Assembly: GCA_903839695.1 (NCBI GenBank)
Contig: CAIMDI010000010.1
Location: 6,703-70,702 of the forward strand
Direction of reading: 5' to 3'
DNA length: 64,000 nucleotides
Source of the DNA: Candidatus Tayloriibacteriota bacterium
GTDB taxonomy: Bacteria > Patescibacteriota > Minisyncoccia > Phycocordibacterales > PALSA-1337
Within the stretch, counting starts at the first letter, position 1. Each line of letters begins with the position of its first letter. This document shows positions 1,295-59,834 of this stretch, in pieces. A model generated the notes under the pieces. The model ran no database searches. It saw nothing but the letters and a program-made list of their open reading frames with translations, and was not told the DNA's origin. The position numbers and the translations under genes were made by a program.

Positions 1295-1828
1295 ATGAAG
1301 TCTAAAAATAACTACAGTTCAGGATTCACCCTAATTGAATTGTTAGTTGTTGTCTCAATAATAAGTATTTTATCTAGTGTTGTATTAGCGTCGATGTCTA
1401 CAGCAAGAGGAAAGGCAAAAGATGCATCAGTAAAATTTCTGGCAACACAGATGAGGAATGTTTATGAAATGGAATATTTAAAAAGTGGAAGTTACTCAGC
1501 GATGCATGCTGTTACTTCGACTGGTACGGGTTGGGTATGTACTGATACTCCTAGTGTTCATATATGTCTTGTTACCAACATAGCAGGTTGTGATAGTGTA
1601 TATCAATTAGCTACACTGCCAGATGCAAACAAGGTTTGTGATGATATTATAAATAAGTTAGGTGGTTACACATTTGGTGTTATGAATGGTAGCAAGGATA
1701 CTGATTACGCAGTTTTTATAACATATCCAAGTGACAATACAAAAGGATTCTGTGTAAGGAGTACTGGAGCTGTTTCAGCTTCTGTCTCAAGTGCTGATAA
1801 TTGTCTGAATAAGAGTTTATCAATATAA
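1295..1828 (+). CDS. type IV pilin-like protein with a prepilin N-terminal cleavage/methylation domain
   Basis: Short basic leader MKSKNNYSSG followed by FTLIELLVVVSIISILSSVVL. This is the class III signal (G|F, Glu at +5, hydrophobic helix). There are C-terminal Cys pairs. The start was moved to the internal ATG at 1295. Confidence 0.75.
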   Translation: MKSKNNYSSGFTLIELLVVVSIISILSSVVLASMSTARGKAKDASVKFLATQMRNVYEMEYLKSGSYSAMHAVTSTGTGWVCTDTPSVHICLVTNIAGCDSVYQLATLPDANKVCDDIINKLGGYTFGVMNGSKDTDYAVFITYPSDNTKGFCVRSTGAVSASVSSADNCLNKSLSI

Positions 1829-1842
1829 AAATAATAACTAAA

Positions 1843-1870
1843 GGCCATCAATCAACTCTGATCGATGGCC
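1843..1870. terminator. hairpin GGCCATC-N14-GATGGCC between the convergent pilin and PEP-CTERM genes. A T-run lies on the minus-strand side.
   Basis: 7-bp GC-rich inverted repeat. It is flanked by an A-run on the plus strand, which is a T-run for the minus-strand transcript. Confidence 0.4.
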
Positions 1871-1936
1871 AATTCAATAAAAACTGACAAAACTTAAGAT
1901 TCATGGTTTCTAGCTCACTTGAGCACTTCCCATGAT

Positions 1937-2677
1937 TCATGTTCTCTTTCTTCTGAAGATGAGAATTCCAGCACCGCCGATGAGGAAAACTGCAACTGAC
2001 GACGGTTCTGGGATTGACTGCATTTGAAAGACTCCCAGAGTGAAACCACAATTATTCAGATTGTTAAAATCTGGTTGGAACGACTCCACTTGGAGACTGA
2101 ACACATCACCAGGTTTAACCGTACCAAACTCGCTGGTAAACGTGACAGCATCGAAGGGATGCAATCTATCTGCTACTATGGGGTCAGTCCCTACTGAAAC
2201 CCCATTGATTTCGAAGTTAGACAATGTCATGTGCCCATCATCCGCTTTCGCTTTGTTTATTATCCCGACGGATACCATGAATGAATTGACTCCTGCCATG
2301 CTGGGTGTGTTTACCGTGTTGTCAATACGGGTGCTTGCCCCATATCCATAGCCATCAGTCCTCTCTGTTCTTACAGAGGACGCACCGATTGTCATTGTTA
2401 ATTGGAATTTACTCAAATTCTCAATAGTCCACGGTGCACCAGATAAAGTCTGGTCCAATGGAGAGTTCATGTAAAGGACACCCTGTGACAAGAAACTCTT
2501 CCACATTGGGTACGGGAGGTCTGTTACCTCCTGAGGGGTTAAGTCGCGGGTAATCACCATTTGATTTACCACGATTGATTGCTCAGACAACTGAGCGTTG
2601 ACGTTACTGACGAAGGTCAGGAACGCTACGAAGACGGCCAACAGGGCCGCCCTCATTGTTTGTTGACTCGTTTTCAT
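1937..2677 (-). CDS. secreted protein with a C-terminal PEP-CTERM sorting signal
   Basis: N-terminal signal peptide MKTSQQTMRAALLAVFVAFLTFVSNVNA. The C-terminus is IPEPSSVAVFLIGGAGILIFRRKRT (PEP motif, TM helix, Arg-rich tail). A GGAG RBS precedes the ATG at 2675-2677 on the minus strand. Local GC is ~47% against ~32% background. Confidence 0.7.
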   Translation of the reverse strand: MKTSQQTMRAALLAVFVAFLTFVSNVNAQLSEQSIVVNQMVITRDLTPQEVTDLPYPMWKSFLSQGVLYMNSPLDQTLSGAPWTIENLSKFQLTMTIGASSVRTERTDGYGYGASTRIDNTVNTPSMAGVNSFMVSVGIINKAKADDGHMTLSNFEINGVSVGTDPIVADRLHPFDAVTFTSEFGTVKPGDVFSLQVESFQPDFNNLNNCGFTLGVFQMQSIPEPSSVAVFLIGGAGILIFRRKRT

Positions 2678-2897
2678 TTTTGTTCTCCGAAGAACCACTC
2701 TTGTTTTTGGACAACAGGTCCATTAACTCCGTGGTATTTTATTTATGTTAATGATCTATAAGATCTGCAATACATATATCATCTTTAGTATGCCTTTGTC
2801 AAGTAAAATTGTGGAAAAAACCTATTGCCAATTATTAATTTTTAATGAGTAATGTGGCCCCCTTTACTTTTTATTTAATCTGTATATAATACTTCCC

Positions 2898-3569: not shown

Positions 3570-3599
3570 GCCTTTTTTGTTTATGCTACAATATACTAT

Positions 3600-4949: not shown

Positions 4950-5081
4950 TTTCTGTAAAAAAAATATTCAGGCACAATATTTTAATCTTGGTAATATTGA
5001 CCATGATTTTTTTTGCCTCATAATGTATTCAAATATGTACCAAATTTATTTTACTAATTAATTATTCTTAAAAATTATCTC

Positions 5082-5681
5082 ATGCAAGAAACAGAACCAA
5101 TATATTTTACAAAATTTAGGGAAGGTATAGATAGGAGATTTGACTCTATGGACAAGAGATTCGATTCTATGGATAGAAAGTTTGAGGCTGTAGACTTAAA
5201 GTTTATTGCGATGGATAAAAAGTTTGACGCAATAGATAAAAGGTTTGACTCTATGGACAAAAAGTTTGATGCGATAGACTTAAGATTTGTTGCGATGGAC
5301 AAAAAGTTCGATGCTATAGACTTAAGATTTGCTGCGATGGATAAAAAGTTTGACGCAATAGACTTAAGATTTGACTCAATATACAAGAGGTTTGACTCTA
5401 TGGATAAAAAGTTTGATGCCATAGATAAAAGGTTTGTTAATATGGACAAAAAGTTTGATGCTATTGATGTTAAATTCGTTACTATAGATGAGAATTTCAA
5501 AAATATCAGTTCTCAACTTACTGACATAAGAAATATGCAGGACATTCATTTTGAGGCTATTGGCGGGGTAAAAATCCAAATAACAGAGATTATTGAAGCA
5601 TTGGATAGAAAGGCAGATGTTGCTGATGTAAAAGCATTAGAATATCGAACTAAAAAGCTTGAGTCTCTAGCTTTTGCATAA
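5082..5681 (+). CDS. coiled-coil protein built from ~17 near-identical heptads (DKKFDAI / DLRFVAM)
   Basis: Perfect 7-residue periodicity with F and I/M at the a/d positions. The ends are non-repetitive (C-terminal ...ALEYRTKKLESLAFA). Orientation matches the flanking genes. An antisense ORF at 5075..5500 is also open, so strand choice is uncertain. Confidence 0.5.
   Translation: MQETEPIYFTKFREGIDRRFDSMDKRFDSMDRKFEAVDLKFIAMDKKFDAIDKRFDSMDKKFDAIDLRFVAMDKKFDAIDLRFAAMDKKFDAIDLRFDSIYKRFDSMDKKFDAIDKRFVNMDKKFDAIDVKFVTIDENFKNISSQLTDIRNMQDIHFEAIGGVKIQITEIIEALDRKADVADVKALEYRTKKLESLAFA
5130..5500. repeat. tandem 21-bp (heptad-encoding) repeat tract
   Basis: The units atggataaaaagtttgacgcaatagac and ttaagatttgttgcgatggacaaaaag recur ~17 times with small variations. 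Confidence 0.8.
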
Positions 5682-29020: not shown

Positions 29021-29072
29021 TTCCTATTTTAGTTGTTTAACTTTATTACTTTAATTCATAAATTTTACGAAT

Positions 29073-29128
29073 TTATGCTAAAATATACGCATGTATTTGA
29101 AGTCATTAGAGATTTCTGGATTTAAGTC
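29073..29128 (+). repeat. direct-repeat copy B: the native smc promoter (-10 TGCTAAAAT) plus the smc start
   Basis: Partner of 27724..27779. Confidence 0.7.
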
Positions 29129-34202: not shown

Positions 34203-34874
34203 ATGAATTATCATATTATTTCACTATTTCCGCAATCTTTTGATTCATATATTTCTGAATCTATTCTTAAGCGTGCACAAGAGAATAAAAAAATAAAAAT
34301 TAAATTCTATAATCCTCGTGATTTCACAATCGCTTCAGGCAAAGGGAAAAAACAAAGTTACTCTGATCGTCGTGTAGACGATAAACCTTATGGTGGCGGA
34401 CCCGGTATGGTCATAGAGGCCCTTCCTGTGATAAAAGCCATTGCAAAAGCAGTAGGTAAAAAATCAAATAAAAAGAAGGTTAAAATTGTGTGGTTTACGC
34501 CTTCAGGGAAACAATTTGATACAACTTATGCAAAGGAATTGGCTGTAAAATATACTGATATTGTATTTGTATGCGGTCGCTATGAAGGTATAGATGCCAG
34601 AGTTAAATCTGCTTTTAAAATGGATGAAATATCTATTGGCCCTTTTATTCTTACTGGAGGGGAATTGCCTGCTATGTTATTGATTGATTCTATTTCAAGA
34701 CAAATTTCTGGAGTATTAGGTGACAACACCTCTCTCGAAGAAAATCGTATTGCTTGTTCAGATGTATATACACGTCCAGAAGTAGTAGAATATAAAGGAA
34801 AGAAATATAAAGTACCAAAAGTCCTTCTTTCTGGTAATCACAAACTCATTGATGAATGGAAAAAAAATAAATAA
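34203..34874 (+). CDS. trmD: tRNA (guanine37-N1)-methyltransferase
   Basis: MNYHIISLFPQSF N-terminus of the SPOUT fold. DDKPYGGGPGMV and GRYEGIDARV motifs. Confidence 0.9.
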   Translation: MNYHIISLFPQSFDSYISESILKRAQENKKIKIKFYNPRDFTIASGKGKKQSYSDRRVDDKPYGGGPGMVIEALPVIKAIAKAVGKKSNKKKVKIVWFTPSGKQFDTTYAKELAVKYTDIVFVCGRYEGIDARVKSAFKMDEISIGPFILTGGELPAMLLIDSISRQISGVLGDNTSLEENRIACSDVYTRPEVVEYKGKKYKVPKVLLSGNHKLIDEWKKNK

Positions 34875-35847
34875 TAAGATAATAATATTAAGTATTTTAT
34901 CTATACTACTTATATTATTTATATTATTTTTTGCAAAAAATAATCCTAAAGTTATTTCTATTGAAAATACAAAAATATATCCAGAAAAAGAAATAATCAA
35001 AAAAGTAAAAACTGAAAGTGTTAAAATAATTATTGTTGGAGACATGATGCTCGATAGAAATGTCAGAAATATCATAAACAAAAAAGGATTCGATTACTTC
35101 TTTTCTGGTGTAAAGGATATTATAAATAATGCTGATATTGCAGTGGCAAATCTTGAAGGGCCTTTCACAGACAATCCCTCAAAGACAAATATTCCACATA
35201 GTAAAAGTCTACAATTTACATTTGATACAAAATTAGCTAAGGAATTGGCAGATTTTGGCTTTGATATTCTTGGTCTTTCCAATAATCATACAAAAAACTT
35301 TGGAAATGAAGGTTTTGAAATGACAAAAAAAGTAATAAGTAGTTCCAGTATGCTTTATTATGGAGATCCAGATAATAAAAGTGAAAATAGTGTAATAATT
35401 GAAAAAAATAACATTAAAATTGGTTTTGTTGGTTTTCATGAATTTACTTATGTAAATTTTGATAAAGTAATTTCTGAAATTAAAGCAATTAGAGAAAAAG
35501 TAGATGTACTTATCGTTACTCCACATTGGGGTGTCGAATACAATAGTCAACCAACAGAAAAGCAAATCAAATTAGCAAAAGAATTCATAGATAATGGTGC
35601 AGATATCGTAGTTGGCACACATTCACATATTATAGGAGATATTGGAGAGTATAATAATAAAAAAATATATTATTCACTAGGGAACTTTGCATTTGATCAA
35701 TATTTCTCGAAAGAAACAATGACAGGAATGGGACTACAAATAGAAGCTAAAAAGGGTGTAAATGGTATCGAGCTTGATTATAAGCAAATTCTATTTGAAA
35801 TTGATACTAAAGGAGTTCGTGCTGTAGACAAACAATATTCACTATAA
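34849..35847 (+). CDS. CapA/PGA_cap-family metallophosphatase-like protein (poly-gamma-glutamate synthesis protein CapA homologue), membrane anchored
   Basis: N-terminal TM. Motifs IIVGDMMLDRNV, VANLEGPFTD, LGLSNNHTKNFG, GADIVVGTHSHIIG. Confidence 0.7.
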   Translation: MMNGKKINNKIIILSILSILLILFILFFAKNNPKVISIENTKIYPEKEIIKKVKTESVKIIIVGDMMLDRNVRNIINKKGFDYFFSGVKDIINNADIAVANLEGPFTDNPSKTNIPHSKSLQFTFDTKLAKELADFGFDILGLSNNHTKNFGNEGFEMTKKVISSSSMLYYGDPDNKSENSVIIEKNNIKIGFVGFHEFTYVNFDKVISEIKAIREKVDVLIVTPHWGVEYNSQPTEKQIKLAKEFIDNGADIVVGTHSHIIGDIGEYNNKKIYYSLGNFAFDQYFSKETMTGMGLQIEAKKGVNGIELDYKQILFEIDTKGVRAVDKQYSL

Positions 35848-35901: not shown

Positions 35902-37800
35902 ATGATAACTATCTTTTTTTTAATTGTAATTATTTTTGTAATAATTTTCTTTAATAGCAAAATTTCTACATTAGAGGAAAAGGTTGATTCACTTATAAAT
36001 AAATACAATTCTACAAAAGTAAATCAAAGCGTGGCTACGCCCGTAGTACCTTCTATGGCACAGAGTTCTATTTATGGAATCCCCACGACCACGACAGCGC
36101 CCACACCAATACCTGTACCTATGCCTATTGCTGATAATATATCTAAAACTTCAGGAGAAGAACAAAGTGGTAAAATGCTGGGAAAGATTGGAGTTGCTGC
36201 TATTTTGTTGGCTGGTGCATTCTTCCTAAAGGATGTTCCAGATGAAGGTAAAGTTGGTATTGGCATATTAGTTGGGCTTGTTTTTATTGGCTTAGGATAT
36301 TTTTTGAAAACTAAATATAGAGGATACGCACATTTACTTATGGGTGGAGGAATTTCTGTTTTGTATTTATCGATTTTTGCAGCCACCACTTTATTTAAAA
36401 TGATAAATCCTCAATTCGGTTTCTTTTTGATGATATTTATTACAGCTGTGGCAGTAATTATTAGTCTTGTTGAGGATTCAAAAAAACTTGCTGTTCTCTC
36501 AGCTTTAGGTGGTTTTGTTACTCCTATACTTATAACTACAGTAATGGCCGATTATACTTTATTGCTTAGTTATTTATTGATTTTAGATATAGGCATACTT
36601 GTTATTTCAGCAAAGAAAAAGTGGAATATTTTATATCACACAGGTTTCTGGGGTACAGTACTTATATATTCTGTATGGCATATTGCCAATTATAATTTAG
36701 AAATAATGTATAGTGTGCTATTTTTCCTAACCGCATACTTTATTGTGTTTTTACTTTCAAGTATATTTCATCATTTTATTAGAAAGGAGAAATCTAGTCC
36801 TTCTGATGCTTTGGCAATAAGTTTAAACGCTGGAATGTATTTTATGATGGGTTATAACATTCTATTTCCAACATACCATGATAATTTGGGTTATTTTGCT
36901 CTTGTTTTAGCTGTTGTTTATGCAATTACAGCCAATTTGTCATTTAATGTGATGAGAGATGATAAAATATTAAATTACTTCCTCACTGGAATATCCGTGG
37001 TTTTCCTTTCTATAGCCGTTCCATTACAATTCTCAAATGAATGGATAACTTTAGCTTGGTTAATGGAGGCATTGATTCTGTATATCATTTCATTTAGTTT
37101 GGGGCATAAAGCATTAAGAGTTTTTGCTGGTGTAGTATTTTCTTTAGGAATTATTAGAGTGTTATTCTATGATGGTATTTTGAATTATGCTTATACCAAT
37201 ATTAATACACATGCATTTGTGAACTTCGGTTTCGTATTGTTAATGATTTCAGTGATGATTGCTTATGTCGTACAATATTTATATCACAAATTTGATAATG
37301 TAGAAGACTTGAGTGTTAAAAAAATAATAATGTATTTCGTGCTTACTGCAAATATTCTTACGGTTGTTGGTATTACTTCACAAATATACTTATATTATGA
37401 AAATAGCACTCTGATTTTATCTAGAGACTATGAAGCTAAAGTTAAAGTTATCAATAATAGCGGTGGTGATGAATATTCTCAGGATAAAAATGATATATTA
37501 AATCAAAATTATGCAACTATGTATAAAAGTGTTACAGATTTGAATAATCAAAGAAATACAGTGGTTTCAGTATTTTGGATCATTTACGCTGTTATTCTAA
37601 TAGGAATAGGCTTCTCAAATAAAGTAAAATTACTAAGAATTCTAGGATTAGCATTCTTTGTTATAATAGCTGTAAAGATTTTCTTCGATGTATGGGGATT
37701 AGGTACTCAATACAGAGTTATATCATTGGTTGTGTTTGGAGTAGTGGCATTGCTTGCATCATTTGGTTACGCAAAATATAAAGATAAAATAATAAATTAA
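35902..37800 (+). CDS. polytopic membrane protein (DUF2339-like architecture)
   Basis: N-terminal TM, then a short coiled-coil and P/T-rich linker, then more than 12 predicted TM helices. The family assignment is from recall only. Confidence 0.45.
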   Translation: MITIFFLIVIIFVIIFFNSKISTLEEKVDSLINKYNSTKVNQSVATPVVPSMAQSSIYGIPTTTTAPTPIPVPMPIADNISKTSGEEQSGKMLGKIGVAAILLAGAFFLKDVPDEGKVGIGILVGLVFIGLGYFLKTKYRGYAHLLMGGGISVLYLSIFAATTLFKMINPQFGFFLMIFITAVAVIISLVEDSKKLAVLSALGGFVTPILITTVMADYTLLLSYLLILDIGILVISAKKKWNILYHTGFWGTVLIYSVWHIANYNLEIMYSVLFFLTAYFIVFLLSSIFHHFIRKEKSSPSDALAISLNAGMYFMMGYNILFPTYHDNLGYFALVLAVVYAITANLSFNVMRDDKILNYFLTGISVVFLSIAVPLQFSNEWITLAWLMEALILYIISFSLGHKALRVFAGVVFSLGIIRVLFYDGILNYAYTNINTHAFVNFGFVLLMISVMIAYVVQYLYHKFDNVEDLSVKKIIMYFVLTANILTVVGITSQIYLYYENSTLILSRDYEAKVKVINNSGGDEYSQDKNDILNQNYATMYKSVTDLNNQRNTVVSVFWIIYAVILIGIGFSNKVKLLRILGLAFFVIIAVKIFFDVWGLGTQYRVISLVVFGVVALLASFGYAKYKDKIIN

Positions 37801-39087
37801 ATGAAAAAAACATTTCTAATTGCAATAGTATTCTTTCTATCAATCAGTATCACTTATGCAGAATTCAATATTTCAAATTGGAAATATTTTAAAAGCATGT
37901 CTGTGCCCACTGATTTAAATTCAACTTATTCCAAGAAAATTATTGATAATGACATTTACTCTCATTCTAATTTGCAGGATTTAAGAATTATTGATTCAAA
38001 TAAAGCTGAAATTCCATACAAAATAGTAGAAGAGAAAGATATTAATTATCAAAAAAATATTTATGCAGATGTTTTTGACTCCTCAGTGTCTGGCAATCAA
38101 TCGATGGCAATATTTGATACTAAAATAGACTCAAACAAGGCAAATTCCTTACATTCATCAATAACCCTATCTTTAATTGGAAAAAATTATAAAAGAAAAG
38201 TATCTATTTTTGCTTCAGATAAGAAAATTGCTCACGGTGATGCTGGCTGGAGATTAATAAATTCAAATGGTTATATTTTCAATTTCTATGACTCTGTGAC
38301 TGGATTTAACTCTGGAAATAAGACAATAAACTATTCAAAGACTACTGCAAGATATATTAGAGTGCTCATTTCCGATGGAGAAGGTGAGTTACCGCAGATA
38401 AATGGAGCAAATGTGGCTGAAAACTTAACAAATACAGCTAAAATTGAAAGTGATGAATATCCATTAATAATAAAAAATAATTTATTAAATAAAACAACCG
38501 AGCTAACAGTTGATTTGAAGGCTGATAGAATACCTGCAAGTAAAATAATACTTTCAACATCTGATAAAAACTGGAATAGACATGCTGTTTTAGAAACTTC
38601 AAATACAGAAAATGGTCCTTGGACAATGATTGCTGAGGATTATTTGTATTCAATAAATCAAACTCTATATACAGGAACTAAGACCTTTATTGATTTTAAT
38701 GAATCAAAAAGCAGGTTTTTAAGAATTGTAGTTTCAAATTATGATAATGCACCGGTTAATTTTGATTCTAAAATTGCTGTTTTGAGAAATCAGAAATCTA
38801 TTGTGTACAAAGCTACTGATTATCCATCAAAACTATATTACGGAAATGATAAAGCAATTAGTCCTCAATATGATATTGAAAAATTACTTTCATATACTGA
38901 TCAAAATGAAATGATAAGTACAAAGTTAGGGCCAGAAGAAATAAATGCTGATTATATTGCACCAAAAGCACCAGAAAAGACTTTTACAGAAAAGTATCCA
39001 CAAGCATTAAATATTATTCTCGTAATTATGGTGCTTTTGTTAGCTGGCTTCATGTTTATGACTGTTAGAGGTGCAAAAAGTAAATAG
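37801..39087 (+). CDS. secreted protein with a C-terminal TM anchor (DUF3999-like)
   Basis: Signal peptide MKKTFLIAIVFFLSISITYA. C-terminal ILVIMVLLLAGFMFMTV. The start abuts the previous stop (TAAATG). Family assignment is tentative. Confidence 0.4.
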   Translation: MKKTFLIAIVFFLSISITYAEFNISNWKYFKSMSVPTDLNSTYSKKIIDNDIYSHSNLQDLRIIDSNKAEIPYKIVEEKDINYQKNIYADVFDSSVSGNQSMAIFDTKIDSNKANSLHSSITLSLIGKNYKRKVSIFASDKKIAHGDAGWRLINSNGYIFNFYDSVTGFNSGNKTINYSKTTARYIRVLISDGEGELPQINGANVAENLTNTAKIESDEYPLIIKNNLLNKTTELTVDLKADRIPASKIILSTSDKNWNRHAVLETSNTENGPWTMIAEDYLYSINQTLYTGTKTFIDFNESKSRFLRIVVSNYDNAPVNFDSKIAVLRNQKSIVYKATDYPSKLYYGNDKAISPQYDIEKLLSYTDQNEMISTKLGPEEINADYIAPKAPEKTFTEKYPQALNIILVIMVLLLAGFMFMTVRGAKSK

Positions 39088-59737: not shown

Positions 59738-59834
59738 TCACTAACAGTAGCATATTGCATAAATATGAACAAAATTTTAGTTCAGATATATTTGTGGAAA
59801 TTATAATTACTTTTATGATATAATCATTTTACTT

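Follow-up and report, generated by a model that had tools for sequence, protein, structure and literature searches.

The window analyzed here is a 64,000-nt stretch of contig CAIMDI010000010.1 from a Candidatus Tayloriibacteriota bacterium, and the subject of this study is a minus-strand gene in it for a predicted secreted protein of 246 amino acids with a PEP-CTERM sorting signal, together with the cassette in which this gene lies. The coding sequence (CDS) occupies positions 1937 to 2677 including the stop codon (ATG at 2677-2675, stop at 1939-1937, 741 nt). Its GC content was 0.464, whereas that of the other 50 genes of the window was 0.327±0.027 (z 5.1), and its GC content at third codon positions (GC3) was 0.51 compared with 0.215±0.044 in the other genes (maximum 0.36; z 6.8). 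Among all 741-nt stretches in the 64 kb, the highest GC content fell on this gene (0.467 against a mean of 0.327, standard deviation 0.031); rounded, the gene has 46% GC and the window 33%. The score for synonymous codon choice was approximately 8 standard deviations below that of the other window genes, and TTC, ATC, and CTC plus CTG made up 76%, 46%, and 42% of the respective codons in this gene compared with 25%, 9%, and 6% in the host. The GC-rich block (approximately 1921-2700) matches the extent of the CDS, and the promoter, the distal and larger part of the leader, and the terminator are AT-rich and host-like. The gene is thus compositionally foreign to its host. A Shine-Dalgarno (SD) sequence, GGAG, was found at 2685 to 2688 on the minus strand, 7 nt 5' of the ATG, and this gene is the only one among the 51 in the window that has a canonical SD. 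No SD-like motif of any kind preceded 49 of the 51 open reading frames (ORFs), and a TATAAT-like box was located 6 to 10 nt 5' of the ATG of many genes (start regions, for example, at 2870-2897, 3572-3599, 29063-29090, and 59807-59834). These two features suggest that translation in the host starts mostly on leaderless transcripts or independently of an SD.

The whole inserted cassette extends from 1829 to 2862 (minus strand), that is, from the stop codon of a type IV pilin-like gene to the −35 box of the promoter of the ribosomal protein L25/TL5 gene (rplY), and it is absent in sister lineages. The pilin-like gene (1295-1828, plus strand) is convergent with the cassette and matches the N-terminal methylation motif family N_methyl (PF07963, E 1.3e-8). 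The L25 gene (2898-3569, plus strand) is divergent from the cassette and has its own promoter at 2863-2890. A promoter-like site for the cassette, whose function is predicted, was located at 2773 to 2802 on the minus strand and comprises a −35 sequence TTGACA (2802-2797), a TG dinucleotide (2781-2780), and a −10 sequence TATATG (2778-2773). Downstream of the CDS, at 1843 to 1870 on the minus strand, there is an intrinsic-terminator-like hairpin with a 12-bp stem followed by the T-run TTTAGTTATT. An Rfam scan returned no family at the cassette locus, and the 5' leaders of the cassettes folded no better than shuffled sequences (z −0.7 to −1.2).

The deduced protein begins with a signal peptide of residues 1 to 28 (2594-2677, minus strand), recognized by inspection as MKTSQQTMR, AALLAVFVAFLTFV, and SNVNA|QL (…AALLAVFVAFLTFVSNVNA|QL), that is, a basic n-region, a 14-residue hydrophobic core, and a predicted cleavage site after VNA. 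The PEP-CTERM module of residues 221 to 246 (1940-2017, minus strand) consists of SIPEP, the hydrophobic segment SSVAVFLIGGAGILIF, and RRKRT. The C-terminal tail IPEPSSVAVFLIGGAGILIFRRKRT scored 23.7 bits on TIGR02595 (residues 222-245), above the cutoff of 16, and 20.1 bits (E 6.7e-4) on Pfam PF07589, just below the gathering threshold of 20.7; according to Haft et al. (2006, PMC1569441), PF07589 recovers only some 22% of the TIGR02595 instances. By the NCBIfam model TIGR02595, the protein carries a PEP-CTERM domain. Between the two ends lies a core of codons 36 to 218 (2024-2572, minus strand), which is predicted to form a beta-rich ectodomain. The AlphaFold2 (AF2) secondary structure of the core had approximately 8 strands at low confidence; the two AF2 runs, with 2- and 3-sequence alignments, gave mean confidence scores (pLDDT) of only 40.8 and 42.6, and the models were unusable. 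A profile search of the PDB sequences with the protein gave no match. A preliminary description of this DNA had reported a GC-rich island of a single gene, a canonical GGAG ribosome-binding site unlike that of most genes, a signal peptide, a PEP-CTERM signal, and a neighboring pilin gene. All of these were borne out: on the recomputation that it had proposed, of sliding GC and codon usage against the rest of the contig, composition was not uniform and the gene remained an outlier, and the C-terminus scored above the TIGR02595 cutoff.

In a separate observation outside the window, three proteins of about 1000 amino acids (P0003, P0004, and P0007) were found to consist of 3 to 5 tandem units. 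Every unit closes with a PEP-CTERM tail (…PEPSTLALLLIGG…RRKR), and a further segment resembling a signal peptide follows directly, with no intervening stop codon. Either separate genes were fused in the gene calls, or these are true PEP-CTERM polyproteins.

The host was placed by its L25 protein, the best relatives of which (up to 85% identity) are encoded by metagenome-assembled genomes labelled Candidatus Taylorbacteria, Paceibacteria, or Patescibacteria. The view that the host resembles the candidate phyla radiation (CPR), proposed from the sequence beforehand, agrees with this placement in Candidatus Taylorbacteria (Patescibacteria). The sample names of the matching contigs point to a series of metagenomes from stratified lakes. 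In public records, the proteins of the locus are named "hypothetical protein" at most.

Two core alleles and one 5' variant of the gene were sampled within the window species. The L084 and L085 contigs (protein P0002) were 98-100% identical to the window over the L25 gene, the intergenic region, the leader, both ends of the CDS (35 codons at its start and 28 at its end), and the 3' flank, which in L084 includes the terminator-like hairpin. From about 2572 to 2024 (approximately 550 bp), nucleotide identity fell to about 55-65% with indels, and the boundaries were sharp. By the Nei-Gojobori method, dS was 0.09-0.16 and dN 0-0.016 in the ends (codons 1-35 against L084: dS 0.09, dN 0), and pS was 0.81 and dN 0.37 in the core. 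Under identical residues, the alleles differed at 59% of the 44 four-fold degenerate sites. Because the core proteins are still 55-60% identical and dN is 0.37 against a pS of 0.81, the reading frame is under purifying selection, and the gene is real. The PEP-CTERM module is identical in P0002, and it and the signal peptide form the conserved 3' and 5' anchors of the exchange. A third haplotype (P0011; ENA ERZ1426690, a 1751-bp contig) differed in residues 4 to 9 only (MKTDQHNIKA compared with MKTSQQTMRA; window 2650-2668), which hints at another recombination breakpoint at the extreme 5' end. The breakpoints of the mosaic fall within the signal peptide and the anchor, a pattern that indicates homologous exchange of divergent alleles, as judged from the sequences. 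No silent cassette or second copy was found in the 64-kb window, and no transposase or integrase was found at the locus. Other sources of variation were considered and rejected. A diversity-generating retroelement was ruled out, since the divergence of about 40% with indels over about 550 bp is not restricted to adenines. A repeat-flanked mobile element was not retained, as the 12-13-nt direct and inverted repeats (D7, I12) were no better than regional chance repeats. Invertase-type switching was unsupported: there are no inverted repeats around the cassettes of the two related species described below, and each species has one orientation.

The gene order around the locus, namely a 2-hydroxyacid dehydrogenase, a 69-aa membrane protein, the pilin, L25, and a 449-aa transglycosylase-like protein, was conserved in dozens of relatives. 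In the approximately 15 relatives inspected at this site, the slot was empty, and the pilin stop codon was located 35-70 nt before the start of L25, compared with 1,069 nt in the window. The cassette of the window is therefore an insertion. When about 1.3 Mb of related loci were scanned with a regular expression, PEP-CTERM-type ORFs appeared only in the slot between the pilin and L25 genes, and only in three lineages. One of these, L087 (ERZ27300037), has an L25 that is 87% identical to that of the window species and carries a gene for a 235-aa protein (P0005) in the same slot and orientation. The GC content and GC3 of this gene were 0.50 and 0.48, and those of its flanks in GC content were 0.34-0.38. 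P0005 showed 25% identity with the window protein (E 7e-11) and keeps VPEPS, a helix, and RRLRR. An identity of 25% between species whose L25 proteins are 87% identical points to very fast evolution. Furthermore, the promoter, the SD, and the start codon are homologous between the window and L087: the TTGACA...TG.TATAT arrangement is also present at the orthologous L087 locus, and the SD has the same position as in the window (ACGGAGAAACCAAC-ATG, i.e. ACGGAGAAAC…ATG). As a side observation in L087, the SD-bearing leader and the coding region of P0005 share a perfect 13-nt complementarity (849-861 and 1129-1141); approximately 0.01 such pairs would be expected by chance per 1.2 kb by our estimate, and none was seen in the window gene.

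The third lineage, L016 (Loclat_bin-01970), has an L25 that is 83-85% identical, and a gene for a 191-aa protein (P0008) occupies the slot on the opposite strand. The GC content of the gene was 0.49 compared with 0.364, and its core had no detectable similarity to the window protein. The signal-peptide junctions are similar (AVA|QLGAPSI in L016, VNA|QLSEQSI in the window), and a promoter-like sequence similar to those of the other two species, TTGACAAAAGCATGCT, is present. Across all contigs there was one orientation per species, with the L016 version inverted throughout. On TIGR02595, P0002 and P0008 scored 23.8 and 24.8 bits and passed, and P0005 scored 15.2 bits, just below the cutoff; P0008 also passed PF07589 (26.4 bits). 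The motif [IV]PEP[SA] was kept in all four versions, and the rest of the proteins diverged to 25% identity or beyond recognition.

When L25 was analyzed by neighbor joining (216 columns, 200 bootstraps), the three genomes with an island grouped as a clade with 99% bootstrap support, and the nearest lineages outside this clade (L019, L004, and L047) had empty sites. The dS values of L25 among the three island-bearing species were 0.70-0.86. Because the same slot is filled in three species of one well-supported clade and empty in the sisters, a single gain in the clade ancestor is the simplest reading of these sequences, and a recent acquisition is not supported. The L016 state, inverted and with a core that was replaced or has diverged, would be derived under a single gain.

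Several features of the surroundings were observed in addition. The pilin is highly variable in length and sequence across the relatives (34-75% identity over partial matches, 1-3 copies), and the pilin beside the island in the L016 species (L016 8322-9173, L096 9021-9851) contains a lectin-like Laminin_G_3 domain. In this species, two HepT-like/nucleotidyltransferase (MNT) pairs of the toxin-antitoxin type lie upstream of the syntenic block (L096 1478-3572); they are absent from the matching region of the window species. In the window, a plus-strand ORF at 5082-5681 encodes a 199-aa protein of approximately 11-residue repeats (DKKFDAIDLRF...) and is mirrored by an antisense ORF (5075-5500, minus strand). 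This protein matched no Pfam family with confidence and gave weak matches of the coiled-coil type, and its position is kept in relatives. At 35902-39087 (plus strand), a 632-aa DUF2339 protein with about 17 predicted helices (E 4.6e-64) adjoins a 428-aa DUF3999 protein, and this pair comes after a PGA_cap capsule-synthesis gene (34849-35847).

Word-index and HMMER searches for homologues of the cassette protein covered 5.8 billion clustered proteins as well as 1.84 billion representatives. Only the alleles, P0005, and matches limited to the tail were obtained, and a scan of JGI metagenomes returned only the known L085 contig. At the sequence level, the version of each species is an ORFan. A phage origin had no support, as the scan of viral contigs gave no relative. 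Beyond the tail, there was weak, sub-threshold similarity to the PEP-CTERM families NF038129, NF038120, and PepA of diderm bacteria, and the last 60 residues resemble P0006, a PEP-CTERM protein encoded on a contig of 57.7% GC (hhalign probability 96%). Because of this weak similarity, the SD, and the codon usage, the evidence favors a donor that was a GC-richer, SD-using bacterium bearing PEP-CTERM proteins.

The persistence of the GC excess was examined with an amelioration model for four-fold degenerate sites, with host frequencies (GC content at four-fold sites, GC4, of 0.14) and F81-type decay. The neutral model reproduced both the proportion of differing sites between the alleles (0.59) and the observed GC4 of 0.36 if the ancestral GC4 was about 0.65 or more. 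Since the model fits the observed divergence and GC4, plain incomplete amelioration since an old transfer would be sufficient. Silent-site saturation had been considered as proof of a force that maintains GC; this argument was dropped because the four-fold model allows neutral partial amelioration.

Based on these findings, we consider it probable, with moderate confidence, that the locus is an old, horizontally gained, self-contained cassette which was acquired by the clade ancestor, encodes a variable protein displayed on the surface, and owes its GC excess to its donor. In the proposed course of events, the ancestor would have gained a cassette of about 1 kb, made up of a promoter, an SD-bearing leader of some 95 nt, the CDS, and a terminator, from a GC-richer, SD-using bacterium with PEP-CTERM proteins, and the cassette would have entered the short gap that separates the pilin gene from rplY. 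The product would be exported by the Sec pathway and its signal peptide cleaved after VNA; the beta-rich ectodomain of approximately 190 residues would be displayed on the cell surface, and the C-terminal helix would hold the protein in the membrane, its RRKR facing the cytoplasm. Should the genome encode an exosortase, cleavage at PEP would take the place of plain anchoring. After the gain, divergence would have been extremely fast, which would explain why the version of each species is an ORFan, and divergent alleles may have been exchanged among strains by homologous recombination, for which the conserved sequences of the signal peptide and the tail would serve as anchors. The present GC excess would then be an incompletely ameliorated remnant of the donor. 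The most likely role, as far as sequence features tell, is that of a variable membrane-anchored surface protein. We hypothesize that the protein is presented at the surface to a host cell or to phages, which would fit the neighboring pilin, the speed of divergence, and the exchange of alleles.

Several points weigh against this proposal. Neither a donor nor a close outside homologue was found among the 5.8e9 and 1.84e9 proteins searched. The GC excess is confined to the CDS, and neutral amelioration should treat the leader and the synonymous sites alike, so that selection or biased conversion may to some extent act on the CDS. At four-fold sites, the allele core appears about 2.4 times older than the split between the window species and L087; a faster local rate, a weaker constraint than that on L25, or introgression from an unsampled member of the clade is therefore needed. 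In addition, the clade is defined by one protein of 216 columns, and the L016 locus, with its unrelated core and inverted orientation, could be a separate insertion at a hot spot.

The alternatives to the proposed cassette differ in how much of this evidence they accommodate. The general view of CPR bacteria is that they have no outer membrane. It is tentatively possible that the clade has, even with a host of this kind, a working sorting system of the exosortase type, by which the tail would be cut at PEP and the ectodomain transferred to a surface polymer or released. The retention of [IV]PEP[SA] in 4/4 versions amid identities of 25% or less suggests a constraint on the motif; the prolines could, however, be retained as helix caps. 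No exosortase was found in the roughly 85 kb surrounding the locus, which include the 64-kb window and its flanks (about 10 kb), or in the relatives' syntenic regions. The window proteins with at least six predicted helices are an ABC transporter, the DUF2339 protein, and a ZIP transporter only, in line with what had been stated before about the absence of an exosortase from the window. PEP-CTERM proteins are putative substrates of the exosortase EpsH/XrtA (Haft et al. 2006, PMC1569441), and the median number of PEP-CTERM copies per positive genome is 8 (PMC1569441), whereas one such gene was seen in 64 kb and no other in the 1.3 Mb of related loci. Moreover, the paper that defined the signal found it only in bacteria with an outer membrane plus genes for exopolysaccharide (EPS), co-occurring with EpsH (PMC1569441), which excludes a host of the present type; the window has the PGA_cap capsule gene and no EPS locus. 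More doubtful still is a wider proposal, in which a diderm-type PEP-CTERM signal would long have been functional in the clade, in cells believed to be without an outer membrane, and the strict conservation of the PEP motif would reflect cleavage by an undescribed exosortase-like enzyme; the variable ectodomain, encoded beside the pilin gene, would be a determinant of host contact or exposed to phages in this episymbiont, and the GC content would perhaps be actively maintained at a hot spot of recombination.

The likeness to known systems was also compared. Like other members of the PEP-CTERM class, the protein starts with a signal peptide, its ectodomain has no known homology, and at its C-terminus a PEP motif precedes a hydrophobic helix and a cluster of basic residues; it passes TIGR02595. 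Its diversity and ORFan character are also typical of the class (PMC1569441). On the other hand, the CPR host, the single copy seen, the absence of an exosortase nearby, the outlying composition, and the hypervariable alleles set it apart. The weak similarity to NF038129, NF038120 (QFxxD), and PepA (NF033554) extends over 35-100 residues upstream of the tail, and hhalign matched P0006 as given above; however, scores of 17-31 bits are far under the family cutoffs of 65-80, and the window protein is not a member of NF038129 or NF038120 (16.9 and 19.0 bits against cutoffs of 65 and 80; best allele score 30.7) or of any other named PEP-CTERM protein family. The tripartite C-terminus of motif, helix, and basic tail, and the expected single-membrane envelope, are shared with the LPXTG/sortase proteins of monoderm bacteria, but the motif here is PEP and not LPXTG. 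TIGR01167 (LPXTG) gave no match to the window protein at E<=10, and the LAETG variant alone scored 11 bits against a cutoff of 30. Flagellin FliC and Borrelia OspC are well-known examples of surface antigens in which conserved termini enclose a variable core that recombines. The conserved ends and the sharply bounded divergent center between near-identical strains resemble this pattern, whereas there is no relation in sequence or fold to these antigens and no silent cassette in the window. A full-text search of a library of papers found no paper linking PEP-CTERM proteins or exosortases to CPR or Patescibacteria; co-mentions occurred in unrelated contexts, such as a citation in a reference list.

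It is also conceivable, albeit unlikely, that the GC richness is actively kept and is no fading trace of the donor; selection on codon usage or mRNA could do this, as could gene conversion biased toward GC if the locus is a hot spot of recombination. The GC3 of 0.46-0.52 in 4/4 versions despite heavy silent divergence, the limitation of the excess to the CDS, the strong preference for NNC codons as seen for TTC, and the recombination evident at the locus are in line with this idea. However, the neutral model fits with a donor GC4 of about 0.65 or more, GC4 is already down to 0.36 where residues are conserved, and the host ribosomal protein and RNA polymerase genes show no preference for NNC codons.

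A recent single acquisition by the window species alone, not yet ameliorated, had been suggested in the preliminary description. The foreign nature of the gene stands, based on its GC, SD, and codon outliers and on the insertion relative to about 15 empty relatives, and both the GC3 value and the lack of the gene in most relatives would also suit a recent event. Its recency does not stand, and we regard this explanation as highly improbable: GC-rich orthologous genes fill the same slot of L087 and L016 within the 99% clade, at L25 dS values of 0.70-0.86; the promoter and SD are homologous between the window and L087; two alleles within the species are near silent-site saturation; and there is no donor among the 5.8e9 proteins. 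Finally, the chance of an artefact, be it a chimera of the assembly or a spurious ORF within GC-rich sequence, is negligible, and nothing beyond the jump in composition speaks for it. Across 2,330 bases that cover the pilin, cassette, and L25 genes, the window is matched with 100% identity by seven contigs, which come from different samples and assemblers. The exact window protein occurs on at least 17 contigs and the L016-type island on at least 15 contigs from independent assemblies. The alleles share the frame, the signal peptide, and the tail, and dN between them is much lower than pS. The earlier concern about a chimera is removed.

What is new here is a familiar sorting signal in an unexpected lineage, carried by a gene that is single-copy, old, compositionally alien, and allelically variable. 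As a compositional island that is old and clade-wide, it cautions against reading GC jumps as recent transfers. How CPR/Patescibacteria build their surface and recognize their hosts is largely unknown, and the locus offers a reproducible, strain-variable gene for an exported protein beside a pilin gene. A signal defined as limited to bacteria with an outer membrane thus occurs in a CPR lineage. Should an exosortase exist in this lineage, the system would be known from a very different envelope as well; if none does, a PEP-CTERM tail can persist as a plain membrane anchor.

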